Origin: a virus
Taxonomy: Duplodnaviria > Caudoviricetes
IMG/VR virus record: IMGVR_UViG_3300031963_000837
Location: 1-25,846 of that record
DNA: 25,846 nucleotides
Strand: one strand, 5' to 3'
Below the pieces are notes generated by a model. The model was not told where the DNA came from. It saw nothing but the letters and a program-made list of their open reading frames with translations, and ran no database searches. This document shows, piece by piece, positions 10,459-25,194 of the stretch (position 1 is the first letter of the stretch; the number at the start of each line of letters is the position of its first letter). A program made the translations under genes and the position numbers.

Positions 10459-11018
10459 TGGACCCGCTGACCATCGCTTCAGCCGCCTTCAAGGGCGCCG
10501 GCGCCCTGATGAGCATCTTCGGCGCCGGTGCCCAGAACCGCGCGGCCCGGCGCGTGACGCGCCAGCAGCAAGCCACGCTTCGCGACAATGCGGATATAGC
10601 CATGATGCGCTCGACCTTCGAGCAGAACCGCATCGACGACCAGATCGACGCAACCACCGGCGCGCAGGTGAACTATTTCGCCGGCGGCAACCTCGACCCC
10701 GCCAGCGGCTCGCCGGCGGTGCTGCAGGCCATGACGACGGCGCAGGGCGAGACCGACAAGATGCTCGCCGCCGCGCGCGGCGCCCAGGAACGCGCCGACG
10801 CCTTCCAGCAGATTTCCGATCTCGAAAGCGGCCTCGGCGCGCAAAGTCGCGCGATGAGCTGGGGCATCGGCACCACCCTGCTCGGCACCGCCGGCGACCT
10901 TGCGCAGATGTTCCGCCCGAAAACGGGTGCCTATGGCGCCAGCGGCGGCTCGTCCGGCGCAGATAACAGCTTCGCCCGGGCGCGGCGCATCAACAACTTC
11001 CAGGGCTGGGGCGTCTGA
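10458..11018 (+). CDS. Internal virion (ejection) protein, T7 gp14-like position
   Basis: MDPLTIA start, Gly/Ala-rich hydrophobic ends, SGSP motif; coupled TGATG junctions. Confidence 0.8.
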   Translation: MDPLTIASAAFKGAGALMSIFGAGAQNRAARRVTRQQQATLRDNADIAMMRSTFEQNRIDDQIDATTGAQVNYFAGGNLDPASGSPAVLQAMTTAQGETDKMLAAARGAQERADAFQQISDLESGLGAQSRAMSWGIGTTLLGTAGDLAQMFRPKTGAYGASGGSSGADNSFARARRINNFQGWGV

Positions 11019-13777
11019 TGAGTGCACCGGTCTACATTTCGCGCGGATCGAGCCAGGGCATCGGCGAGCTGCAGCCGAGCCGCGACAATAGCGCGCAGAT
11101 CACCGGCCAGGCGCAGGCCCGGTTCGGCCAGGCGCTTGGCGGGCTCGGCAATGTCGCCTTCAGCCTCGGCGAGCAGATCCAGCAGATCAATCGGGCCTCG
11201 ACGGTTGCCGATCGCAAGACGGGCTTCATGACCGGGATCGACAATCTCGGAAAGGAATTCGAGAACGATCCTGATCCCGCCACGGCCGAACAGCGCTTTC
11301 AGGAGCAGGTGACGAAGCTCGAAGGCTCGGCGCTCGAGGGACTTCGCCCGGACGATGCGGCCGAGTTGCGCGTGCAGCTGCGTCGCCAGTCCATCTCCTA
11401 TGCCGGCGGCGTGCGGGCCAATGCGCTGAAAAAGCAGTCCGATGGCTATCTTGCCAATGTCGATCAGCAATTCGACGTTCTCACCAGGAACTATGCGAAT
11501 GCCAAGACCGACACCGAGCGGCAAACCTTTATCGCCGAGCTCGACGAAACCCTGAAAAGCGGCGTTTCGCGCGGCATGATGACGGCCAAGGCCGCCGAGG
11601 CCTATCGCCAGTCCATGGCCCAGACCGGCGACAACGCCCTTGTGCTCCGCCAGATCGGCATGAACCCGGCCGCCGCGCAAGCGGCCTTGGCCGATCCCGA
11701 GCAATTCAAGGGCCTCAACCCGGTCCAGCGCGAGCAATTCGCACAGCAGGCCCGTGCCGCCGCAGAAGCCCTCCGGGCCCAGCGGCTCGAAATCCGGGCG
11801 CGCACCAACCCGGAAGCGGCCACCATGGAAGCCGGGCGCGTGAGCGGCCCCGGCGCCATCGCGCGGATTTTCGACAGCGCCATCATTCCGCAGGAAAGTG
11901 GCGGGCGCGCCGGAGCCGTATCGCCGGCCGGAGCCGTCGGCATCGGCCAGCTCATGCCGGATACGGCGCTCGGCGTCGCCACGAAGCATGCCAGCAAGGA
12001 CCCGGCCTTTGCCGAATTCGCACGCCTGCCCGAGACCGAGCGCCGCGAACGCCTGCTGACCGACCCGGCGCTAAACCGGCGGCTCGGCATGCAATATCTG
12101 CAGGACACGATCGAGGCCACGGATGGCAGCGTCGTCGCGGGCATTGCCGGTTACCATGCCGGAACGGGCCGGGCGATTGAATGGCACAAGGCCGCCGTGG
12201 CCAGATATGGCGAGGGCTACAGCGCCGCTGAATTCCTCACCGTGATGGACCAGAACCTTCACGACGGAAAGAACGGCCAGCAGGGCAAGCGCACGGTGGA
12301 TTATGTGCGCGACATCTACAAGCGGATGGGGGTGGATATTGCCGCCCCGGCCTTCACCGGCATGAATACCTTCCGCGCCTCGGATATCGTGCAGCGCGAA
12401 TGGGACCGGCGCGAGGCGCAGACCAGACAGATCGTCAACGAGGTCACGGCCCTGTCTCGCCAGCAGGCCGACCAGTTCGGCGGCTTGCTCGATCAGGGTC
12501 TCAACGTCAATCCGGCCCGCCTCGCGGAAATCCAGTCCGGGCTGCAGCTCGGCGCGGCGCGCGGTGAACCGCAAGCCGCCGAGACGCTCCGGCTGCTCAA
12601 CGAGCGGATCGAGATGCTGCCTCATGTGCAGCGCGCCTATCGCATGGCGCCTGCCGAGCTTGAAGCCTATACCAGCAGTCTCCGCTCTTCCTTCGCGCAG
12701 GACCCGACACCGCAGAAAGAGCGGCAGCTCAAGGTGTTCGAAGCCGTTGCCGCGCAGGTGGCCAAGGGCGCGAAGGAAGCGCCCGTGCAGCTTTACGAAC
12801 GGCATACCGAGGGCCAGCCCACTTTCGTGAACCCTCAGGCACAGATTGGCAGCGCCGAGCTCGCGCAGCAGCTTCAGGCACGATCCATCGTTTCCGATGG
12901 CGCCTTCAAGCGCTACCAGACCCGCGCCTTCTTCAAGCCCGAAGAGGCGCGCGCATGGAAGGACCGGTTCGAAACCATGGGCGACCAGGAGCGCTTCGAT
13001 CTCCTGCAGGCCCTGCAACGCAACACCACGGGCGAGGCCGCCTATCGCGCGGCCGTGGCGGAAGTGACGGGCGGCGACAAGCTCGCGGCCACGGCGGGCA
13101 TGTTCCTGACGAACAACCCGCAGCTTGCGCGCGACATCCTTCGCGGATCGTCGATCGCGCAACTCGACGGCATCAAGCCCAAGGCAGAGGAGATCAGGAA
13201 CGCGCTCAAGTCCACCATGCCCGGCCTGCTCTATCCCAGCGTGGCGATGCAATCGGATGTGATCGAAGCCGCGCTCGCGGTCTATGCCAGCGAGCGGGGC
13301 CGCAACGCCGCGCTCTATGATGCGGGCGACCGAGCCGGTCTTGAAGCCGCCATCGAGCGCGTCACCGGCAGGATCGTGAAGATCAATGGCGCCAAGGTGC
13401 CCATGCCGCCCGATATTCGACCTGCCGACGCGCAGGAGGCAATCTACAACCTTTCCAAGGAAATCCTCGATGCGTTCGGCGGCGCTTATGGTCGCGACAA
13501 TCAGCCGCTCGACCCCTTCCTGATTGCCCGCCACGCGCAACTTCGTCCGCTCACCGTGCAGGGCAACCTGTTCGCCGTTCTCCTGCCGGAAGGCCGCGAA
13601 GGAGCGCCGGTCATGAACAAGGAAGGAAGACCGCTCGTGATCGACCTCGCCAAGGCCGTGCAACTGCATGCCCCGCTCAGCAGGCCAAGTCAGGCCGGGC
13701 GTCTCAACCGGACCCTTGCCGAGCAATTCGCGGAAGAGCGGCGCCGGCTCGGCATTCCCATGGGGGGCAGCCAGTGA
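11018..13777 (+). CDS. Internal virion protein with lytic transglycosylase (SLT) domain
   Basis: QESGG...AVSPAGAVGIGQLMPDTA...AGYHAG SLT motifs at about 11880-12170 within a 919-aa helical protein. Confidence 0.88.
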   Translation: MSAPVYISRGSSQGIGELQPSRDNSAQITGQAQARFGQALGGLGNVAFSLGEQIQQINRASTVADRKTGFMTGIDNLGKEFENDPDPATAEQRFQEQVTKLEGSALEGLRPDDAAELRVQLRRQSISYAGGVRANALKKQSDGYLANVDQQFDVLTRNYANAKTDTERQTFIAELDETLKSGVSRGMMTAKAAEAYRQSMAQTGDNALVLRQIGMNPAAAQAALADPEQFKGLNPVQREQFAQQARAAAEALRAQRLEIRARTNPEAATMEAGRVSGPGAIARIFDSAIIPQESGGRAGAVSPAGAVGIGQLMPDTALGVATKHASKDPAFAEFARLPETERRERLLTDPALNRRLGMQYLQDTIEATDGSVVAGIAGYHAGTGRAIEWHKAAVARYGEGYSAAEFLTVMDQNLHDGKNGQQGKRTVDYVRDIYKRMGVDIAAPAFTGMNTFRASDIVQREWDRREAQTRQIVNEVTALSRQQADQFGGLLDQGLNVNPARLAEIQSGLQLGAARGEPQAAETLRLLNERIEMLPHVQRAYRMAPAELEAYTSSLRSSFAQDPTPQKERQLKVFEAVAAQVAKGAKEAPVQLYERHTEGQPTFVNPQAQIGSAELAQQLQARSIVSDGAFKRYQTRAFFKPEEARAWKDRFETMGDQERFDLLQALQRNTTGEAAYRAAVAEVTGGDKLAATAGMFLTNNPQLARDILRGSSIAQLDGIKPKAEEIRNALKSTMPGLLYPSVAMQSDVIEAALAVYASERGRNAALYDAGDRAGLEAAIERVTGRIVKINGAKVPMPPDIRPADAQEAIYNLSKEILDAFGGAYGRDNQPLDPFLIARHAQLRPLTVQGNLFAVLLPEGREGAPVMNKEGRPLVIDLAKAVQLHAPLSRPSQAGRLNRTLAEQFAEERRRLGIPMGGSQ

Positions 13778-16700
13778 CCGACTGGAACCGCGCCGCCGAC
13801 GATTACCTTGCCGAATTGCGGCGGCGTCCGCCCGCGCGCGCGCCGGCCACGATCGGCGAAATCTGGGACACCGAATGGAAGGCCACGGGGCTCGACACCA
13901 CATTCGGCGTGCAGAGGCCGATGATGGATGCCTATTCCGAATTGCAGGAACGCCTCACCGCCATCACCGGCAAGGATCTTGGCACGCTCGCGCGCGAGAG
14001 GCGGCTGGATTTTCTTGAGGGCGGCTTTGATGGACGTGTCCAGACCATGGGCCGGATCATCGACAGCCTGCCCGATCCGCAGCAGAAGCTCCTCGCCGAT
14101 TACAAGGATGTGCGCGGCCGCGCCCGCATGAAGGCGGCGGAAATCGAGAAGCAGAGCGCCGACGTCGCCGGCGCCACCTATGGCTTGTCCGGCCATGCCG
14201 TCGCCTTCGCCGCAGGGATTGCCCGGCAGATGGCCGACCCGGTGAACATCCTCACGGCGCCCATCGGCGGCCCGGCCAAGGGGCCGGTGCTGAAATGGCT
14301 CGGCAAGGAATTCCTGATCGGCGCCGGCGTGCAGGCCGCGCAGGAGCCATTCATTGCCACAAGGCGGCAGGAACTCGGCCTCGAAACGAACAGCATCGAG
14401 AACGTGCTCGAGGCCGGCATCGGCCAGGCCGGTTTCGCCGGCATCCTGCGCGGCGCGGCCGCGCTGATACGTGCCGGCAAACAGGGGAGCAACCTTCCGC
14501 CCGTCGATATCACCGCACGCGATCATGAGGCTGTAGCGCGGCACGTCGAAGCACAAGACATCGTGATGCGCCAGACCGGCCCCAGCCGCGAGGCCGCCGA
14601 TGCGCTGGCACAGGCGACTGCGGCACTCAACGGCCAGGCGCCGATCGCTGCCGCGGCCCCGGCCCGCTCCGCCGCCTTCTCTCTCGAGGGGCCGCAGCGC
14701 GTCGTCGTCAACGACCAGCTCGCCTTCAATGTGCGCTATGCCGTCGTGGAGCGCGGCAATCTCATCGTCTCGCACTCGGCCGACGGCACGGTAAACCCGG
14801 CCTTTCCGGCGGAGATCCAGCCGCGCGACCGCGCGACGATGGAATTGCGCCAGCAGGTGCAAACCATCGCCGGCACGCTTGAGCCCTCCTGGCTCACCAC
14901 CTCGCCCAATGCCCAGTTCGGCGCGCCCATCGTCTCGGATCGCGGCGTGGTGGAGAGCGGCAACGGCCGCACGCTCTCGATCGGCCTCGCTTACGAGCGT
15001 TTCCCCGATCGCGCGCAAGCCTATCGCGACGAGCTCGAACGCCTCGGCTTCGACACAAGCGCCTTCGAGCAACCCGTGCTGGTGCGCATCCGGCAGGATG
15101 AGCTCACGCCCCAGCAATTGATGGCCTATACCGCGCGCAGCAACATCAGCGAGGTCGCGAAGCTTTCGGTGCCCGAGCAGGCCGCGCTCGATGCGCGCAA
15201 CCTGCATGGTGGCATCCTCGAGAGCTATCAGGGCGGCGATCTCACGCTCGCGCGGAATGCCGAGTTCGTGCGCCGCTTCATTCAGGAGCTCGTGCCCGTT
15301 GCCGATCAGAGCGCGTTCATCGCCGGCGGTCGACCGACCGAGGCCGGAATTGCCCGCATGCAGGGCGCGCTGATCGCCCGCGCCTGGCAGGACGCGCGCA
15401 TGGTGCGCGAGATCGCCGAAAACCCCAACCCGACCAGCGTCACCATTCTCCGGGCCTTTGCCGACACCGCGCCGCAGATTTCGCGGCTTCGCGCGGCCAT
15501 CGAGGAAGGGCGCGTGGATGGCGGCGCCGATATCGTCTCGCCGCTCAAATCCGCCTTCGATCTCGTGGAGCGCGCGCGGATCGAGGGGCGCAAGCTCTCG
15601 ATGCTGGTGAACCAGAGCGACGTGGAAACCGGCGCCGTGCGGGATGATGTGCGCGCGGCCGTGCGGCTCTTCTTCCGCAACGACGAGCTGACCGTGCCAG
15701 CCGGCCGCGAGACGATCGAGGCGCGCATTCTCGACGCCGTTGATCGCGCCATCATGAGCCAAGCGGGCGGCCTATTCGACGAGGCCATCGACCCGGCCGC
15801 CATCCTTCGCGCCGCGCGCTTCGCCACCGAGCCCTTTGCCGAGCTCTCGCCCACCGAACGCGCCCGGCTCCTCTCGGAGGCCGCCGGCGGCAAGGACGTC
15901 GCCACCGGCCGGCTTGACGCCGAAGCCGCACGTTCGACCGAGCAGCCAGCGCCCGAGGCCGGCGCCCTCCTCGAGGCGCCCGTGCAGACACCGGCGCAGG
16001 TGCTCGCGTTTGAACAAGCGCGACTTGAGCAGCCCTTCACGGATCTCGACACCTTGTTCGCTCTTGCGCCGGCATCGCAGAAAGAGCTTGTCGAAGCGCT
16101 TCGCGCGACCGGCCTGGGCACGGTCAAGGATCCCGGCATCAAGGCGCGTGACGGCGGGCGTGGCGTCGAGGCCAAGGTCAAGCGCAAGGGCTACAACGAT
16201 ATTCGCCGCGTGACCGATGTTGCTCGCGCCGCGGTAATCGTGAAGGACCCAGCCGATGCCCAGGCCGTTGTGCAAGCTCTCGCAAGCCGTTTCACCATCT
16301 GGGATGAAGGTTGGGCCGTGACCGGGATTGGCTATGCCGACCGCAAGGTGATGGTGCGCACGTCAAATGGGCTTCTCGCCGAAGTGCAGCTCCTCGAGGA
16401 GAGCATGGCCAACGCGAAGAAGGCCGGCCATCAGCTCTACAAGCAGCGCGGCGCCGCCATGGTCGAAGGCGATGTTGCCAAGGCCCAGCAGATCCGCGAG
16501 CAGGAGCTGCAATACTGGGGTGGAATTCAGGCGGCGTTGCCGACCGATTGGCGCTTGGCGCTGGGGCTGGAACCAAAGGCCTCGATCTCTGCACCAAACG
16601 CCGCCGTAGCAAACGCCTCGTCGATCGGGCGGCCATCCAGCTCGATATCGGCAGAGCTGACCGGAAGCCAGCCGCGCTCCTTGGTGAGCACAAACCCCTC

Positions 16701-17001
16701 GAGCGTGGCTTCATCGACGACGGCAAGCCGCGCGTCCCAGTTGAACAGCTTGAACGAACCGAGCGACATGGGAACCTCCAAGGCCACCGTTGCACGTGGC
16801 GATGCCGAAATCAATGCCCGTGTCAAGAGCATGATGAATGAAATCGGCCCGGAGACGCGCCTGCCCTTCGAACAGGCCGACGGCACCATGAAAGAGATGA
16901 CCGTGGCGGAGCGCATGGCCGAGGTCGAAAAGGTGAAGCGCGCGGCGGCCGAGCTCAACGATTGCATCGCCCGCAACGGCGGCGGAGGCAAGAACACATG
17001 A
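13774..17001 (+). CDS. Polyvalent internal virion protein with DdrB/ParB-like and RelA/SpoT-like domains
   Basis: YAVVE...SH...QPRDR...GAPIV...VESGNGR (about 14700-15150); K..R..AK / TDVAR / GY / EVQL / HQLYK (about 16130-16450); GTGA and ATGA coupled to its neighbours within the ejection-protein cluster. Confidence 0.85.
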   Translation: MTDWNRAADDYLAELRRRPPARAPATIGEIWDTEWKATGLDTTFGVQRPMMDAYSELQERLTAITGKDLGTLARERRLDFLEGGFDGRVQTMGRIIDSLPDPQQKLLADYKDVRGRARMKAAEIEKQSADVAGATYGLSGHAVAFAAGIARQMADPVNILTAPIGGPAKGPVLKWLGKEFLIGAGVQAAQEPFIATRRQELGLETNSIENVLEAGIGQAGFAGILRGAAALIRAGKQGSNLPPVDITARDHEAVARHVEAQDIVMRQTGPSREAADALAQATAALNGQAPIAAAAPARSAAFSLEGPQRVVVNDQLAFNVRYAVVERGNLIVSHSADGTVNPAFPAEIQPRDRATMELRQQVQTIAGTLEPSWLTTSPNAQFGAPIVSDRGVVESGNGRTLSIGLAYERFPDRAQAYRDELERLGFDTSAFEQPVLVRIRQDELTPQQLMAYTARSNISEVAKLSVPEQAALDARNLHGGILESYQGGDLTLARNAEFVRRFIQELVPVADQSAFIAGGRPTEAGIARMQGALIARAWQDARMVREIAENPNPTSVTILRAFADTAPQISRLRAAIEEGRVDGGADIVSPLKSAFDLVERARIEGRKLSMLVNQSDVETGAVRDDVRAAVRLFFRNDELTVPAGRETIEARILDAVDRAIMSQAGGLFDEAIDPAAILRAARFATEPFAELSPTERARLLSEAAGGKDVATGRLDAEAARSTEQPAPEAGALLEAPVQTPAQVLAFEQARLEQPFTDLDTLFALAPASQKELVEALRATGLGTVKDPGIKARDGGRGVEAKVKRKGYNDIRRVTDVARAAVIVKDPADAQAVVQALASRFTIWDEGWAVTGIGYADRKVMVRTSNGLLAEVQLLEESMANAKKAGHQLYKQRGAAMVEGDVAKAQQIREQELQYWGGIQAALPTDWRLALGLEPKASISAPNAAVANASSIGRPSSSISAELTGSQPRSLVSTNPSSVASSTTASRASQLNSLNEPSDMGTSKATVARGDAEINARVKSMMNEIGPETRLPFEQADGTMKEMTVAERMAEVEKVKRAAAELNDCIARNGGGGKNT
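16527..16769 (-). CDS. Nested antisense gene, 80 aa; candidate immunity/antitoxin for the RelA/SpoT-like domain
   Basis: Minus strand reads GGAGG-ttccc-ATG. The product has globular, acidic composition (MSLGSFKLFNWDARLAVVDE...), while the overlapping + frame is a Ser-rich linker. Confidence 0.75.
   Translation of the reverse strand: MSLGSFKLFNWDARLAVVDEATLEGFVLTKERGWLPVSSADIELDGRPIDEAFATAAFGAEIEAFGSSPSAKRQSVGNAA
16786..16826 (-). promoter_or_regulatory. Candidate internal antisense promoter
   Basis: Minus strand has TTGACA (16826-16821) and TTGATT-N17-AACGGT (16814-16786) just upstream of the nested gene's RBS. Confidence 0.35.
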
Positions 17002-19598
17002 GCGTCTTCACCTGCTTCACCGCCAAAATCGAAAAGGGCATCGTCGATCGCGAGCTCGGCCAGGGCTTGCTCGACAGCATCGCCGAGACGGAGCTCGAGC
17101 TCGGCAAGCGCCTTGCGCGTCATGAGGCCGCGCTAGAAGCCGCCACGGAAAAGGCGACCGAAGTTGCCGCGTTCGCCGCGCGGGAAACCGAGCGCGCCAT
17201 GCTGCAGATTGAGGCGCAGCTCAATGTGCTGAAAACCGTGCAGCGTGCCGAGGAGGCCCTCAACCAGCGCCGCGACCAGAACAAGGCGCCGTTCTGGCTT
17301 CGGGATCCGCGCAAGAGCGCGCTCTATTCGGCCATGCGCGCGCTGCTCACGCGCGACGGTGCGGAGCTCGTGCCCGGGACGCCCTCGGTCTATTACATGG
17401 CCCGCAACATCCGCGGCCAGGCGCATGCGCTCTTCACCGATGGCATCGAGGCTCTCCGTCCCACCATGGCCGGGTTCAAGCAGCAGAGCGCGCTCGAGCT
17501 CGAAGTGCTGCAGGCGATCAAGGACAAGGGCGCGGCCGTCTCGGATCGAGCCTCGGCCATTGCCAAGAGCTGGCATGATACAGCGGAAATGCTGCGCACG
17601 GCGTTCGTGAATGCCGGCGGCGAGCTGCCCTATCGGCAGGATTGGGGCTTGCCCAACCCGGTGCATGACACGCTGAAGATCCGCTCGGTTCAGCGCGAGG
17701 AATGGATCTCCTTCGTCAAGCCTCTACTCGCGCGCGACGCCATGCTCTCGTTCGACACGGGCAAGCCCATCGGCCCGTCAAAGCTTAACCGCCTCCTCGA
17801 GGAGATGTATGAGAACGTAGCGACGGGCGGCCGCGCCGATGGGCCGAGTTCCGCCTTCACCGGCGCCGGTGCGCTTGCCAAGCGCCGCAATGAGCACCGC
17901 TTCCTCGTCTTCAAGGATGCCGAGAGCTGGGCCGCCTATGACGAGAAATTCGGCGCCGGCCGCGGCGTCTATGAGACGATGATGAACCACATCGAGAACA
18001 TGGCCGAGGACATCGCCATGCTCCGCGTGCTCGGCCCCAATCCCGAGGCCACCAAACGCTTCATGCTCTCGATGTTCGACCGGCAAGCCGCGCGCATGAC
18101 GCGCCAGGCCGAAGCCGGCGCGCCCGATGCCGCCAAAGCGCAAGCCTACAAGGACAACGCGAAGATCGCCTCCGGCATCGCCAGGGGCAAGCGCGCCTTC
18201 GAGAACCTCTGGGCCGAGGTCACCGGCGCCAACAAGGTGCCGGTCAATATCGAACAGGCGCATTTCTGGAGCGAGGTGCGCTCCGGCCTGGTCGGCTCAC
18301 AGATGGGCTCGGCCATCCTGTCCTCGATCACCGATCCGGCGCTGATGACCATGATTGCCCGGTTCAACGACATTCCGGCGGCCAATGTGATCCGCCGCGC
18401 CGTGGCCGGCATGGCCGATGGCGGCTTCGAGTTGAATGCCGCGCAGCTCAGCCTCGTGGCAGACAGCGCCGCCATGCGGATCCGCGCCAATGACCAGTTC
18501 ATGGGCGAGACGATGCGCACCGGCACCATGGCCAAGATCGCCTCCGGCGTGATCCAGCTTTCCGGCTTGCGCCGCTGGACGGGCGTGCTGCGCTCGGCCT
18601 TCGGCATGGAGATGATGGCAACGGCCGCCGCGCGCCTCGAAACGCCCCATGCGAAACTGCCGCAGGGCTTCCGCGACATGCTGGGCCGCTATGGCATCGG
18701 CGCCGAGGAATGGGCCGTGATGCAGCAGGCCACGCCGAACGAGCCGCGCCCCGGCGGCAAGTTCCTGACCGCCGCCGATCTCCGGATGATGGACAGCTCC
18801 AAGGCCCGGGACATCGCCGATCGCTGGCAGCGCGCCATTGACGAAGAAATGGATTACGCCGTCATCGAGGGCGACCCCGAAACGCGCGCGCTCATGTATG
18901 GCCAGAGCCAGCCCGGCACGGCCGAAGGCGAGCTCCGCCGCGCCGTCGGGCAATACAAGGGCTTCCCCATCACCTTCGCGCTCCTGCATTTCGGCCGCGC
19001 CATGGCGCGCGGCAATGACAGCTCGCGGCTGACCCATGCGGCGCTGACCTTCGGCGCGCTCTGGGCCATGGGCATGGTGGCCATGCAGGCAAAGGAAATC
19101 GCCAAGGGGCGCGACCCCATCAGCATGGACCCCACGACGCCGATCGGCATCCGCGCCTGGGGCGCGGCGGCGCTGCAGGGCGGCGGTTTCGGCATCTTCG
19201 GCGACTTCCTGTTCATGGATCAGACGCGCCAGGGCGCGTCCCTCGCCTCAACGCTGGCCGGCCCCAGCTTCGCCGCGGTCGAGAAGGTCTTCGGCGACTT
19301 CCTGATGGCCAATGTGCAGCGCGCCTGGAAAGGTCAGGAGACCCATTTCGGCGGCGATGCGCTTTATGCCGCGGCCGGCCTTTTGCCAGGGGCGAACCTC
19401 TGGTATCTCAGAACTGCATTCCAGCGTGGTGTGGTCGATCAACTCGCCCTGATGATCGACGAAAGAACGCCGCAGCGTTTCGAGAGGATCGAGCGCGAGG
19501 CGCAGAAGAACTGGGGACAAAGCTTCTGGTGGGAGCCCGGCCGCGTGGAACCGCGCCGTTCGCCCAACATAGGCGCCGCGTTCGGAGGTGGCCCCTAA
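16998..19598 (+). CDS. Large internal virion (ejection) protein
   Basis: ATG 16998 overlaps the preceding stop; 866 aa helical protein with hydrophobic C-terminal GGGFGIFGDFL and PGANLWY motifs; precedes the tail fibre gene. Confidence 0.85.
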   Translation: MSVFTCFTAKIEKGIVDRELGQGLLDSIAETELELGKRLARHEAALEAATEKATEVAAFAARETERAMLQIEAQLNVLKTVQRAEEALNQRRDQNKAPFWLRDPRKSALYSAMRALLTRDGAELVPGTPSVYYMARNIRGQAHALFTDGIEALRPTMAGFKQQSALELEVLQAIKDKGAAVSDRASAIAKSWHDTAEMLRTAFVNAGGELPYRQDWGLPNPVHDTLKIRSVQREEWISFVKPLLARDAMLSFDTGKPIGPSKLNRLLEEMYENVATGGRADGPSSAFTGAGALAKRRNEHRFLVFKDAESWAAYDEKFGAGRGVYETMMNHIENMAEDIAMLRVLGPNPEATKRFMLSMFDRQAARMTRQAEAGAPDAAKAQAYKDNAKIASGIARGKRAFENLWAEVTGANKVPVNIEQAHFWSEVRSGLVGSQMGSAILSSITDPALMTMIARFNDIPAANVIRRAVAGMADGGFELNAAQLSLVADSAAMRIRANDQFMGETMRTGTMAKIASGVIQLSGLRRWTGVLRSAFGMEMMATAAARLETPHAKLPQGFRDMLGRYGIGAEEWAVMQQATPNEPRPGGKFLTAADLRMMDSSKARDIADRWQRAIDEEMDYAVIEGDPETRALMYGQSQPGTAEGELRRAVGQYKGFPITFALLHFGRAMARGNDSSRLTHAALTFGALWAMGMVAMQAKEIAKGRDPISMDPTTPIGIRAWGAAALQGGGFGIFGDFLFMDQTRQGASLASTLAGPSFAAVEKVFGDFLMANVQRAWKGQETHFGGDALYAAAGLLPGANLWYLRTAFQRGVVDQLALMIDERTPQRFERIEREAQKNWGQSFWWEPGRVEPRRSPNIGAAFGGGP

Positions 19599-19631
19599 GC
19601 CCGATCCGGACGCCCTCTCCCCGAGGGCGAC

Positions 19632-21140
19632 ATGACTGTCACTTCCGAGCTTTCCGCGGTTGAACGCAGCTGGACCGGTGTGGAAACCGTGTTCGACACC
19701 GGGTTCAAAGCCCGTGACGCCACGCATTGCAGCGTTTCGGTCGGCGCCACCGTGCTCGTGCGCGGCACGCAATACACCAGCGTTCTTGCGGCCGGCGGCG
19801 TTCTGCAGATCCTGCCGCTGGCCGGCATGCCGGCCGCGCCGGCCACGTTGCTCATCGAGCGCGTGACGCCAGCCACCCAGGAAACCGATCTCGTCAATGG
19901 CGACACCTGGGATATGGAGGCATTCGAGCGCGAGCTCGACAGCAATGCCATGCGCGATGCCGAAACCCGGCGCATTTCCAGCCTCGCGAGCAGCGCCGCC
20001 ACCACTGCGCTGGCGGCCGCGCAGCAGGCGCTCGAGGGCGTGGTGGCGGCCGTCGCCGGCGTCTCCTTCTTCAATGGGCGCACCGGCAATGTCATCCCGC
20101 AGGCCGGCGATTACACCGCCGCCCAGGTGACGAACGCGGCCGCGACCAATGCCACCAACACCTTCACGGCGGACCAGCAGATTGCCAAGGCCAACCCGAC
20201 GGCGACCCTCAACAAGGCCGCATCGGGGCAGGTGAACGCCCTGCGGGGCCTGACCAACAACGTGCTGCGCTGGGCGCTCCGGCTCGGCAACAGCACGGCC
20301 GAGGCGGGAGCCAATGCCGGAAGCGATTACGAGGAAGTCAGCGCCGACGATGCCGGCATCGAGACCGTGCGCCGGCGCGTCCGCCGCTCGGATGGCTACA
20401 ACACTTTCTTCGGCTCCGTGGAAATCGGTTCGCCCGGCGCGGGCCATTCGGTGCTGCTGCGGCGCTTCGGCACCACCATCGGCGCCCAGTTCGATTTCGA
20501 GATCCCCAGTTCAGGCTCGGCGCTGAATGGCCCGGTGCGCGTGCGCGTCTTCGGCAACACGCTCGAGATCGCGGAAGGCGGCGGGACGCTGCGCGGCGTC
20601 CGCCTCGACCTCACCGCCGCCGCCGCCAATGCCGCCTCCGATCTTGTGCATGCCGGCAACATCGACGCCATCCTTGGTGCCCGGCTTACGCCAGTTGCTA
20701 CAACAAGCGGTACGCAAGTAGATTTTACGAACTTGCCCGCTGGCATTAATGAAATTGTCGTGTCTTTCGATGGGGTTTCCCTGAATGGCACAGATCATTT
20801 GCTGGTGCAGATTGGAACAAGCAGCGGAATGGAGGTTGCCGGATACGTTTCGACATCGGTACTTGCGTTCGGAGGAAACGGTGTTCAAGCTATTAATAAC
20901 ACAACCGGATTTGTTCTTTTCGGTGGATCAACTGCAAACATTGTTTCTGGACACATGACTATTCGGCGCATGAGTGGAAACAAATGGACGCAAAGCCATA
21001 CTAATTTGAGTTCTCCTACTTCGGGCCACTTTGGTGCGGGAGTTAAAACTCTTGCAGGCGAAATTACCAGCGTTCGTATTTTGGCAACAGGCGCAAACAC
21101 ATTTGACGCTGGCTCAGTCAATATCAGCTATACTCGGTGA
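19632..21140 (+). CDS. Tail fibre protein
   Basis: T7 gp17-like N-terminal adaptor (ERVTP.TQ..DL.NG...E..LD), fibre motif VSFFNGRTGNV...GDY, beta-rich C-terminal tip. Confidence 0.87.
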   Translation: MTVTSELSAVERSWTGVETVFDTGFKARDATHCSVSVGATVLVRGTQYTSVLAAGGVLQILPLAGMPAAPATLLIERVTPATQETDLVNGDTWDMEAFERELDSNAMRDAETRRISSLASSAATTALAAAQQALEGVVAAVAGVSFFNGRTGNVIPQAGDYTAAQVTNAAATNATNTFTADQQIAKANPTATLNKAASGQVNALRGLTNNVLRWALRLGNSTAEAGANAGSDYEEVSADDAGIETVRRRVRRSDGYNTFFGSVEIGSPGAGHSVLLRRFGTTIGAQFDFEIPSSGSALNGPVRVRVFGNTLEIAEGGGTLRGVRLDLTAAAANAASDLVHAGNIDAILGARLTPVATTSGTQVDFTNLPAGINEIVVSFDGVSLNGTDHLLVQIGTSSGMEVAGYVSTSVLAFGGNGVQAINNTTGFVLFGGSTANIVSGHMTIRRMSGNKWTQSHTNLSSPTSGHFGAGVKTLAGEITSVRILATGANTFDAGSVNISYTR

Positions 21141-21149
21141 GGTAAGGCG

Positions 21150-21887
21150 ATGCGAGCAACCCTCGAAGCCTTCATGCCCACGCTTTACAAGCACGAGGGC
21201 GGCTATTCCGACCACAAGCGCGATCCGGGTGGCGCGACCAATTTCGGCATTACGCTGGCCACGTTGCGCGAGTGGCGCGGGCGCCCCGTGACAAAAGACG
21301 ATGTGCGCACCATGCAGCGCAGCGAGGCCGATGCGATCTATCACGCCCATTACTGGAACCGCATCGACGGAGACAGCCTCCTGGCCGGGCCGGATGCGGC
21401 CCTGTTCGATGTGGCGGTCAATTCCGGTGTCGGGCGCGCGCGCCAATGGAAATCGCTGCTGGCGGGGAAGAACGCGGTCGATGGCGTGAAGGCGGTATGC
21501 GCCCGCCGCCGCTCCTTCTTCCGGTCGCTCTCCACCTTCGATGTTTTCGGCAAGGGATGGATGCGCCGGGTCAATTCAGTCGAGGCATGGTCGCTCGCAT
21601 GGGCCGTGCGCTGGCAGGGCGGGGCCGTGAAGCCCGTTCTCGAACAAGAGGCATCGCGGGCCAAGAAGCAATCGAACGCCAACGCCGGCGGCGCTGCGGC
21701 CACGGGCGGCGGTGTTGTGGCGGCTCCGCAGGCCGATGCGGTGGCGGGCGCCAACTGGCTCGCGATTGCCGCCGTGGGAGTTCCCATCGCGATCCTGCTC
21801 GGCTTCCTGATCTATCAGGCCGTCATGCAGGCCGACCGCGCAAGGGCCATGAACGCAAAGGCCATGAAGGAGATTGCTGATGGCTGA
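21150..21887 (+). CDS. Endolysin, glycoside hydrolase family 108, with C-terminal transmembrane segment
   Basis: HEGGYSDHKRDPGGATNFGIT catalytic motif; FGKGWMRRV peptidoglycan-binding-like motif; GAGG RBS. Confidence 0.92.
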   Translation: MRATLEAFMPTLYKHEGGYSDHKRDPGGATNFGITLATLREWRGRPVTKDDVRTMQRSEADAIYHAHYWNRIDGDSLLAGPDAALFDVAVNSGVGRARQWKSLLAGKNAVDGVKAVCARRRSFFRSLSTFDVFGKGWMRRVNSVEAWSLAWAVRWQGGAVKPVLEQEASRAKKQSNANAGGAAATGGGVVAAPQADAVAGANWLAIAAVGVPIAILLGFLIYQAVMQADRARAMNAKAMKEIADG

Positions 21888-22428
21888 CATTCTCACGACC
21901 ATCGCCAGAACGCTGGCAAAGCAGGGCGCGCCCGTTCTTGGCGGGCTGATCGGAACCGCCATCGGCGGGCCGGTTGGCGCTACCGTGGGCGGGCTTGCGG
22001 GCAAGGCCCTTGAGGCCGTTGCCGACGCGCTGGGCACTTCGAGCGATCCCGCGGCCGTGGCGGAGGCGCTGAAGAGGCCGGGCGCGACGGTGGCAGTGGC
22101 GCGCGTGGAGGCGCAAACCGGTGAAATGATCCGGCTTTGGGAAATAGAGGCCCAACGCGCGAGTGATGCGCAGGCGGCTGAAATCGCGCAAGGCTTCACC
22201 GCCTGGCAGTTCTGGCGGAATTTCATTCAGGCCGTGGTGTGGGGCGGGTGGTTGATCCTGCTCATCGCCGCGATCTTCGGCGGCAATCTCGGCATCAAGG
22301 GCAACATGCCGATCGCTGAGATGGTGACGGCCTGGGGCTTGGTTTCGTCGCTCTGGATGGCCGTTTTCCATGGCGGGCATACGGCGAAGGAAGTGTTTTC
22401 CGCCTCGAAATGGGGGAAGACGCAATGA
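21880..22428 (+). CDS. Holin-like membrane protein
   Basis: AAGGAG RBS before ATG 21880; N-terminal Gly-zipper (GGLIGTAIGGPVG) and two C-terminal hydrophobic helices; adjacent to the endolysin. Confidence 0.65.
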   Translation: MADILTTIARTLAKQGAPVLGGLIGTAIGGPVGATVGGLAGKALEAVADALGTSSDPAAVAEALKRPGATVAVARVEAQTGEMIRLWEIEAQRASDAQAAEIAQGFTAWQFWRNFIQAVVWGGWLILLIAAIFGGNLGIKGNMPIAEMVTAWGLVSSLWMAVFHGGHTAKEVFSASKWGKTQ

Positions 22429-22592
22429 TCGCATCCCTCTTTCGAGCGGCGGCTTTGCTGGTGCTGCTGTCCGGTTGCGAAAGTCTGCCCGGCCCGAAAG
22501 CCCTGATGGTGAATGAACCGGGGTTCGACGTTTCCAAGATCGCTGAGACAAACAAAGCCGGCATTGCCGCCGGATGCTGGAAAAGGAGATAG
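22425..22592 (+). CDS. Small lipoprotein, o-spanin-like
   Basis: Signal peptide with lipobox LSG-C; 55 aa; C-terminal GCW; located in the lysis cluster. Confidence 0.6.
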   Translation: MIASLFRAAALLVLLSGCESLPGPKALMVNEPGFDVSKIAETNKAGIAAGCWKRR

Positions 22593-22871: not shown

Positions 22872-24523
22872 TGATCGGCCCCACCGTCACGATCGGCCGG
22901 CGCCGCCGTCGCAGCGGCGGCGGTGGCTCGCTGCCCGTCGTTCCTCTCGGTGGGCTGATCACATTCTACGGCGACGGCACCGGCTCGGAAGGCGCGGCCC
23001 CGGGCGTGCGCAACTGGCCAGCCTGGGCGCTGCAGGCCATGGGCGGCAGCATCATGCCATCCGAAGGATGGATGCAGTGCAAGAGCGGCGAGACGCTCGA
23101 CGGCGTTTTTGCCCGCCGGCACGCGGCGCTGAAACAGGCTCCGAATATTTTCGTTTACGCTTCCGATGGCCACAATGACGGCCTGAAAAGCTCGGGATGG
23201 TCCGCTCAATTCACCAAGTGGGAACGCAACCTCGATGCGGTTGTGGCGGGGCTGCCGAGCACGACGCGCATCGTCGTCATGCCCACGCTCTGGACATCCG
23301 TGTCAGGCGAGACCACGGGCGGCAACTGGCGGCAGATCGTGCAGGATGCGCAGGTGGCCAAGGTGACGGCGCTGCAAGCCATTCATGGCGCGCGCATCAT
23401 CCTGTTCAACTGGTGGACGGCAATCAATAGCTTCGGCCCCTATGACTTCACGACCGGCGCGAACGCATCGGATAACAATGTGCATGCCAACGCGTTCGGC
23501 GGCTGGACGCTCGGCAACATGCTGGCCGAAATCCTGAAGCCGCATATCACCACCGCGACCAAGGATGCGATCCTCGCGGATACGGCAGCCAAGACGTGGC
23601 GCGGCGCGAACATCTATGCGGAGCGGGCCTATACCGGAACGACCGGCGCATTGGCAGGCGGCGTCGCCCCGACAGGGCAGGTGGCCACGACGCACACCCT
23701 GACCAACAACCTCACGAACGGCACGGGCGTGACGGTCACCGCCGCCAAGGTGGCACAATCGGGATACGATCAACAGAGGATTACCGTTTCCGGAACGCCC
23801 GCCGCCGCGCAGACCATTCGCTTTGCCCGTTCGAGCAACATGACGATCACCGGTGGAGCGCCCGGCACCTATTTCGCCTTCATGTGTGGGCTGCGCATCG
23901 AGAACGGTTCGGGCGGACCTGCGGCAGGCCTCGATAATTTCGGGCTATCTCTTGGCTCGCCTAACGCGCTCTTCTCGAACGCGAACCTTGGCGCTTTCGG
24001 TTTCTCCAATCCTCTTCCTGCGGTCATCGACGGCGTATTCCTGTGCCCGCCCGATGCCTGGTTCGCGAATGACACAGCGGTTGCGCCGCCGACGCTGGAT
24101 TTCAACTTCGATGCTGTCGCTCTCTCTGCCCAGATCACGATCGAGCGCCCGCAGGTTTTCCAGCTTTACACCAATGCCCGCACGGCGCCCTGGTATATCG
24201 GCGACGATACGATCGTCGGCGCCAACTTTCAGGCGCGCTTGACGGGCACCGGCGTCACGGGCGCCGGCCTGCCATCTGCCGGCACCATCACCGCCGCCAC
24301 GGTCACCACGGTGCGCGTGGAGCCCGGCAACTGGTCTGGCGGCGGACTGACCTTCTCGCGCGTGATGCGCCGCAATGGTGCGGTTGTATCCGGCGCATTC
24401 TCGACCGGCTGGACCTATGCAATGGGCGGGCAGGTAGTGGCCGGTGATGTCATCGCGATTGATGTGACCGCGACGAACAGCTTCGGCTCGGAAACGCGCA
24501 CGCTCACCTTCAACGTGGTTTGA
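22868..24523 (+). CDS. Head fibre/spike protein with SGNH-like domain and C-terminal Ig-like domain
   Basis: Coupled to the spike base gene; short N-terminal anchor plus Gly linker; FYGDG, GHND, VHAN blocks; C-terminal GNWSG...VTATNSFGS. Confidence 0.7.
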   Translation: MMIGPTVTIGRRRRRSGGGGSLPVVPLGGLITFYGDGTGSEGAAPGVRNWPAWALQAMGGSIMPSEGWMQCKSGETLDGVFARRHAALKQAPNIFVYASDGHNDGLKSSGWSAQFTKWERNLDAVVAGLPSTTRIVVMPTLWTSVSGETTGGNWRQIVQDAQVAKVTALQAIHGARIILFNWWTAINSFGPYDFTTGANASDNNVHANAFGGWTLGNMLAEILKPHITTATKDAILADTAAKTWRGANIYAERAYTGTTGALAGGVAPTGQVATTHTLTNNLTNGTGVTVTAAKVAQSGYDQQRITVSGTPAAAQTIRFARSSNMTITGGAPGTYFAFMCGLRIENGSGGPAAGLDNFGLSLGSPNALFSNANLGAFGFSNPLPAVIDGVFLCPPDAWFANDTAVAPPTLDFNFDAVALSAQITIERPQVFQLYTNARTAPWYIGDDTIVGANFQARLTGTGVTGAGLPSAGTITAATVTTVRVEPGNWSGGGLTFSRVMRRNGAVVSGAFSTGWTYAMGGQVVAGDVIAIDVTATNSFGSETRTLTFNVV

Positions 24524-25030: not shown

Positions 25031-25078
25031 AGTCTGGGGGACTAGGGGTCGTGGGTTCGAATCCCGCCACTCCGACCA
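25031..25078 (+). other. att core: 3' portion of tRNA-Pro(GGG)
   Basis: AGT-CTGGGGG-ACT anticodon loop (GGG), T-arm GTGGG-TTCGAAT-CCCGC, acceptor 3' strand ending in CCA; the 5' acceptor strand and D-arm are absent. Confidence 0.9.
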
Positions 25079-25194
25079 TTTAAGCTTTTGAAATGTTTAG
25101 GCTTTCAGCCGCTTCGCCTTGCAGAACAGGGGCGGAACATTTCCATTTCTTCCAGTTCCGGACGGATGGAAACGTTCACGCGGCGTTCCGCAAA

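Follow-up and report, generated by a model that had tools for sequence, protein, structure and literature searches.

A small gene nested antisense behind an alarmone-synthetase domain of a phage virion protein, probably an immunity gene, with orphan copies in bacterial chromosomes

Introduction

How can a phage carry a likely toxic enzyme domain inside one of its own virion proteins, and what would shield the cells in which that protein is made or into which it is ejected? The question is raised by the Caudoviricetes record IMGVR_UViG_3300031963_000837, which was analysed over its whole length of 25,846 nt (25.8 kb; hereafter the window) and which encodes the terminase, portal, capsid, tail and internal-virion genes of a podophage. 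One gene, for a 1075-aa protein referred to below as the carrier, contains a small-alarmone-synthetase (SAS, RelA/SpoT-like) domain, and directly behind it lies a Ser-rich stretch whose opposite strand reads as an 80-aa open reading frame (ORF). A first-pass annotation, made from the letters alone, had proposed that this ORF is an immunity gene overprinted antisense onto the virion gene. The features in question are the following:

13774..17001, + strand: gene for the 1075-aa polyvalent protein (carrier), flanked by an SLT-domain gene (11018–13777) and a virion structural gene (16998–19598)
16021..16560, + strand: SAS domain, aa 750–929 of the carrier, recognised from a weak Pfam match, a fold match and conserved residues
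16561..16790, + strand: Ser-rich linker, predicted disordered, the in-frame shadow of the antisense gene
16527..16769, − strand (start 16769, end 16527): nested antisense gene, 80 aa, likely immunity protein, identified by its ribosome-binding site (RBS), homologues and codon polarity
16775..16779, − strand: GGAGG RBS with a 5-nt spacer to the ATG, the spacer being identical in the close relative L017 and in the host copy L025

Selection acts on the nested gene, which accompanies the SAS domain in distant prophages and is also found by itself in bacterial chromosomes. Because of the coupling to the SAS domain, the orphan copies and one copy that lies beside an HD hydrolase gene, we propose, with a probability of roughly 0.75, that it encodes an immunity protein that would neutralise the adjacent, likely toxic domain.

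The nested ORF as a gene

Reanalysis recovered the ORF from 16769 to 16527 with its 80 aa, its GGAGG-N5-ATG and its protein sequence, as well as the Ser-rich + linker, in which 19 of 64 residues are Ser and the third codon positions are common to the + and − frames. An open antisense frame by itself carries little weight, because antisense ORFs of 610 and 690 aa are also present in the window, and since the first ATG of the open − frame lies upstream at 17123 (198 aa), the assignment of the 80-aa start depends on the RBS and the homologues. There are nine GGAGG-N4–9-start sites in the window, three of them on the − strand, and only the one at 16775–16779 opens a frame of more than 46 codons. 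The final ~11 codons of the gene overlap the last predicted helix of the SAS domain. The codon polarity, scored as the codon usage of the + frame against that of its shared-wobble antisense frame, flips at the ORF as had first been noticed: the score over the ORF was −57.7, and none of 534 control windows (mean +80.2, standard deviation 18.2, minimum +18.2) scored as low. These controls were overlapping 80-codon windows, mostly in-sample; the held-out upstream part of the carrier gene gave +55 to +108. The antisense ORF is almost certainly a real nested gene.

Homologues of the nested gene form a family of proteins of 65–99 aa. Five close protein clusters were found at 80–88% identity, giving 17 homologues once cluster members are added, and a full profile search returned 14 matches at E ≤0.001, two of which are long repeat proteins that look spurious; the short profile matches are 57–77-aa proteins of 35–48% identity. 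Residues W11, A16, W34, V37 and P69 are invariant across 16 aligned members. Four longer forms (P0036, P0040, P0048, P0053) were left out of the alignments (A6, A7), the repeat proteins P0037 and P0045 were excluded from the family, and so were three 26% matches to tape-measure-like proteins (L018, L023, L024). All five close carriers are compatible with the antisense ORF (67–73 of 73 positions, no forced stop), as confirmed at the DNA level in L017, in which the RBS, start, frame and stop are all kept. Scans of viral contigs for the antisense gene gave near-identical copies only, or none.

Selection on the − strand product, the core of the original suggestion, is borne out by the conservation of ORF, RBS and start. 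Comparison of the two strands favoured the − strand for the window and the distant prophage of genome G1102, with an antisense-frame alignment z of 6.2 and a toxin-frame z of −0.1, and gave less clear results for the other pairs, which are weighed below.

Coupling to the SAS domain

Among 401 family genomes, SAS-bearing virion genes were found in three (G859, G961 and G1102), and in all three a homologue lies antisense directly behind the SAS domain, inside a long open + frame and with a purine-rich RBS-like sequence and a start codon. The three nested proteins are 23–26% identical to that of the window and 34–37% identical to each other. These counts are lower bounds: the genome scan (A7) scored 14 candidates per genome and missed G961 at E ≤1e-4 despite an E of 7e-9 within the locus. 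Conversely, no nested copy is present at three loci whose carriers are devoid of the SAS domain (the P1 ddrB locus L038, L039 and L048). The co-occurrence that the first-pass annotation had singled out for checking therefore held in every SAS carrier examined, with ORF, RBS and start conserved. In G859 the SAS domain and the antisense gene precede a segment that, judged by eye, comes before them in G1102, and because their position relative to this neighbouring segment shifts, the domain and its partner appear to move as a unit.

Twelve homologue loci in bacterial genomes were classified, mostly by eye and over 3–20 kb: three are nested behind a SAS domain, two are free-standing in phage-like DNA and seven lie among non-phage genes. 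A related prophage (L048) has a free-standing homologue together with a carrier that has no SAS domain. In a phage-like locus of G1181 (L056:1456–2443), two tandem copies of the family lie downstream of an HD_4 hydrolase gene (E 3e-20) and next to a tail-like gene. The stretch upstream of this HD_4 gene may contain another toxin. Elsewhere, in G316 (L049:8048–8783), an orphan homologue immediately follows a ParE toxin gene in the same orientation.

These free-standing copies also bear on how the overlap arose. It had been supposed that the immunity gene was overprinted onto the virion gene, and this direction is not upheld: since the small gene occurs free-standing in prophages and chromosomes and the + linker is predicted to be disordered (pLDDT, the per-residue model confidence, <50 for model residues 189–260, about 30), the small gene is likely the older and the linker the newcomer, a read-through shadow of the antisense gene.

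The alarmone-synthetase domain

The RelA/SpoT-like domain recognised at the outset is real, as judged from a weak Pfam match (RelA_SpoT, PF04607; E 0.0057, 17.4 bits) together with a predicted model (pLDDT mostly >90 over residues 1–180) that matches SAS structures. A Foldseek search with the model retrieved RelQ (5dec, E 3e-7) and Tas1 (6ox6_A, E 6.5e-6), and the target-normalised template-modelling (TM) scores were 0.60 to Tas1 (6ox6_A) and 0.62 to SaEAS (8vx3_C). Atlas neighbours lie at 0.94–0.95, and one set of them has RelA_SpoT on 24% of its members. According to the model, the domain has the SAS (RelA/SpoT synthetase) fold. K790, D815, R818, Y854, D856, K858, E870, Q872 and Y889 are kept in five close and three distant relatives, H886 being the exception among the catalytic-type residues (Q in G1102). 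The conserved D-x-x-R, Y, E-x-Q and basic syn1 residues we take to be the syn motifs of SAS enzymes, and the likely syn3 position, assigned by eye, reads Y-x-D-R-K in all relatives. The domain is likely a toxic enzyme. A first genome scan with it as query returned no match. PDB sequence searches gave no meaningful match, and tblastn against INPHARED only matches with E ≥0.2.

Orphan chromosomal copies and the probable host

The probable host of the phage was indicated by a further feature of the window:

25031..25079, + strand: att-like site, 49/49 nt identical to the 3′ half of tRNA-Pro(GGG) of G001

Because of this identity the phage is probably temperate, and the species of G001, a Methylobacterium sp. 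metagenome-assembled genome (MAG), is its probable host. In G001 a 73-aa copy of the small gene (L025) stands alone between mraY and murD, on the operon strand and with GGAGG-TTCCC-ATG; its DNA match to the window is confined to 16570–16779, and no match to the SAS domain was found in G001. The chromosome thus keeps only the − strand unit, which argues that the − strand is the one that matters, and this is the strongest single result of the analysis. The mraY–murD junction is complete, with gaps of 10–110 nt, in four of the five G001 relatives checked, and a homologue of the antisense gene was found in 1 of 61 related genomes. The orphan chromosomal copies were not part of the first-pass annotation.

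In a comparison of 18 close alleles, all four combinations occur at 65 of the 171 informative column pairs, and variants of the MAG-derived alleles recur in phage carriers. This pattern suggests recombination between phage and host copies, with recurrent mutation as the alternative, one host locus having been seen as DNA. Separately, G001:C14:448472–450038 (L033, L034) matches window 22949–24521, a 551-aa gene with a weak lipase-family match, at 67–78%, and is perhaps a prophage remnant.

In polymorphic-toxin systems, orphan immunity genes are immunity-like genes kept without their toxin. The present orphans differ in that their likely source is a phage virion toxin and in that one copy lies inside the essential dcw operon.

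Transcription of the nested gene

Expression of the nested gene independently of the late operon had also been suggested. Two features are relevant:

16123..16782, unstranded: RNA contig span, candidate antisense transcript, right ends clustering at 16770–16782
16821..16826, − strand: TTGACA, possible −35 element, not above chance alone (5 found, 5.09 expected)

Six RNA runs hold the antisense-gene region, and in five of them, from four studies, a contig ends at 16770, 16780, 16782, 16782 or 16770, whereas a DNA run continues across this boundary. Among the pieces listed, those near the gene stay within 16123–16782 in two runs (X18, X20), further contigs lie to the right of the boundary in two others (X15, X17), and no differences from the window occur, which argues that the RNA pieces come from the phage copy. 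There is no reason for a late transcript of the + strand to stop at 16770–16782, so the contig ends are most simply read as a sign, though a weak one, of a leftward RNA that begins at the RBS. They hint at a transcript separate from the late operon; the contigs are unstranded, and one run spans the boundary. A promoter scan for the antisense gene found none, and raw-read runs yielded a single read (X21) or next to none of the search words (X24).

A second set of RNA contigs was observed in three runs, at 19431–19780, 20197–20510 and 20780–21227, covering the final part of the virion gene together with the tail-fibre gene, and two of these contigs begin at 19479; no codon-polarity flip was found there, and the set possibly reflects an internal promoter or a non-coding antisense RNA.

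Comparison with known systems

The closest parallel is MuF-Apk2/IapK (BcTis1)/Aph1, in which a virion-associated protein of a temperate phage likewise has a domain of the RelA/SpoT type, the small cognate gene follows closely, and an HD hydrolase is present in some cases (PMC10083569, PMC12226406). The HD_4 gene and tandem copies of G1181 recall the apk2-iapK-aph1 arrangement of these modules. The present carrier, in contrast, is a DdrB-ParB polyvalent protein in which ddrB-ParB was the only such domain found and no MuF domain was detected; its SAS domain is internal instead of C-terminal; its partner is antisense within the carrier ORF and not a following gene; and Y-x-D-R-K stands where Apk2 has GxN at syn3 (PMC12226406). 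Tas1 (Apk1)/Tis1 of Pseudomonas aeruginosa (PDB 6OX6; PMC11782079) resembles the pair in its SAS fold (TM 0.60) and in the length of the partner (Tis1_ImmP model, 74 positions), whereas no PAAR or type VI secretion context is present here. With no MuF domain, other syn3 residues and another layout, the system is one that works like MuF-Apk2/IapK and Tas1/Tis1 and is not a member of Apk2.

Phage polyvalent proteins that combine DdrB-ParB and RelA/SpoT are multidomain proteins with the same two domain types in shuffled order (PMC5512222), and the carrier contains, as in the definition of such proteins, at least two conflict domains in one phage polypeptide, including DdrB-ParB. In the main text of that source neither 'opposite strand' nor 'overlap' occurs, and no immunity gene is assigned to these domains in the passages seen (PMC5512222). 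In phage P1, an antisense ORF annotated as iddB (L038:3926–4324) also lies within a virion gene of the DdrB family; its sequence is unrelated (hhalign probability 0.1), for which reason it was rejected as a relative, its position is different and the P1 locus has no SAS domain. PMC10695390 describes iddB as non-essential and of unknown function, and it stands as an architectural precedent and a possible second case. Neither an antisense-nested protein antitoxin in a virion gene nor this family of nested genes was found in the literature searched, which included few subscription papers; the supplements of PMC5512222 may list such neighbourhoods.

Weighing the immunity reading

Several observations weigh against an immunity function or against the evidence for it. 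The PF04607 match stays below its cut-off of 27 bits and one further search gave no match; toxicity and catalysis are predicted from sequence and model; and D-R-K at the syn3 position fits neither the GxN of Apk2 nor the SxH of RelA/SpoT homologues (RSH) given in PMC12226406. No match to Tis1_ImmP (Pfam PF24154) was obtained for six close members, for a second group of 20 candidates (7 + 13, including two spurious ones) or for five genomes with distant members. The small protein had no match to Tis1 among PDB sequences, and a fold search with its low-confidence model (mean pLDDT 55) returned none either, the only link to Tis1 being an Atlas lead at 0.76, of rank 9 and low recognition. Nine of the 12 homologue loci have no SAS domain in the DNA read (mostly ~3 kb; three of 16 kb). 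As to the strands, window and G859 align poorly in both frames (z 2.0 and 0.5), G1102 and G859 score in both (11.7 and 8.0), and a close pair does not separate them (mean BLOSUM62 of changes −0.78 vs −0.69), the third-position test being marginal (0/12 vs 6/20, p 0.043). Finally, the RNA contigs are unstranded, of depth 2–7 and from runs chosen for holding the region, and that of X16 spans the 16770–16782 boundary.

The alternative that survives best, although we consider it unlikely, is that the antisense gene is real and inherited with the domain but does not block it, serving the lysogen otherwise, e.g. in superinfection exclusion or as a regulator or chaperone of a non-toxic SAS domain. 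The SAS-less loci fit orphan immunity, but they equally fit such a SAS-independent role, particularly the free-standing copy in the related prophage L048, and the missing Tis1 match points the same way, the toxicity of the SAS domain being a prediction. Set against this are the presence of the gene directly behind the domain in every SAS carrier examined and its absence from SAS-less carriers, the joint shift of the unit in G859 and the copy adjoining an HD hydrolase gene.

Far less probable is that an antisense RNA is the main agent, running from about 16782 into the SAS region and silencing leaky carrier mRNA in the manner of a type I toxin-antitoxin system, with the ORF secondary. RNA contigs do reach 16123–16125, which lies about 400 nt beyond the stop codon, and so cover the catalytic motifs as well. 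Conservation is nevertheless at the protein level (23–37% identity), the orphans consist of RBS and ORF only, with no pairing target, and an injected protein cannot be neutralised by RNA; an antisense RNA may add to the protein immunity.

That the ORF is a chance shadow of the Ser-rich linker, conserved by shared-wobble copying of + strand constraint, as the many long antisense ORFs and the sharing of positions 1 and 2 between the frames might suggest, is largely refuted by the free-standing copies with an RBS and no + gene, the polarity flip at the ORF, the aromatic residues kept by distant homologues while the + frame diverges, and the 3–5 stops in the shadow of the SAS domain itself.

Under the immunity reading, the carrier would be packaged in the virion and enter the cell by ejection; its SAS domain would there pyrophosphorylate a nucleotide or tRNA, and the small protein, by analogy with Tis1 and IapK, would bind and block the enzyme. 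Expression of the small protein, both in lysogens and in infected cells, would rely on a separate leftward transcript and not on the late operon. The toxin with its backward immunity cassette may have been set in frame into the carrier, the shadow becoming a disordered linker while the carrier C-terminus was kept, as it can be because the shared-wobble shadow frame is often open in G+C-rich DNA. Capture by bacteria would then have made an orphan immunity gene of it, under dcw-operon expression in G001.

The carrier and other genes of the window

From its gene position, the carrier is likely an ejected internal virion protein belonging to a podophage ejection-protein module. Two further segments of it were delimited:

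14719..15093, + strand: DdrB-like ParB domain, aa 316–440 (Pfam PF18763, E 6e-26; tblastn to P1 DdrB, 33%)
16791..17001, + strand: C-terminal segment of the carrier, conserved among relatives

Only 5 of 70 residues differ between the window and L017 in the carrier C-terminus (16771–16980), and this conservation is the likely reason why the + frame is kept open. Domain order varies among carrier relatives, and P1 DdrB is a head protein (PMC9024508). In two near-identical viral contigs (L008, L009), ~100 and 270 nt are missing where the DdrB-ParB region starts (compared with window 14462–14732), and the truncated or frameshifted carriers P0031–P0033 break at the same place, which is either real variation or an assembly artefact. 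P0011 has an extra ~100-aa segment directly before the SAS domain (alignment A1, columns 733–834), likely an additional polyvalent domain, and L010 also diverges there.

At the C-terminus of the tail fibre (window 20700–21150) the G+C content falls to 44–49%, and in three RNA runs a contig shares only 21073–21142 with the window and has different flanks, which together suggest a swappable tip cassette. At 22321–22500, a − strand frame scores above the + frames (180-nt window), and an 89-aa − strand ORF lies at 22295–22564.

Implications

The nested gene is a natural dual-coding antisense gene of a phage, conserved to about 25% identity and with free-standing copies as proof, and as such it provides rare evidence for overlaps of this kind. 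It points to a way in which polyvalent virion proteins can include toxic domains and still be tolerated, and it suggests that a Ser-rich 'linker' following such a domain can be a hidden gene dropped by gene callers. The role of virion-borne alarmone synthetases is an open question in the discussion of PMC10083569 and becomes testable through the nested-gene system. At about even odds, in our judgement, the locus represents a new toxin-antitoxin architecture, in which SAS toxins would be delivered by virions and the antitoxin, of an undescribed family, would lie antisense inside the toxin frame, the pair being shuffled within the virion protein and the antidote supplied from the silent prophage, while bacteria would repeatedly steal the antidote as an anti-phage immunity gene, one host exchanging alleles with its phages. 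If lysogens and orphan-carrying hosts are indeed protected, the enzyme would be aimed at the infected non-lysogen, and hosts would own a ready-made counter to it.

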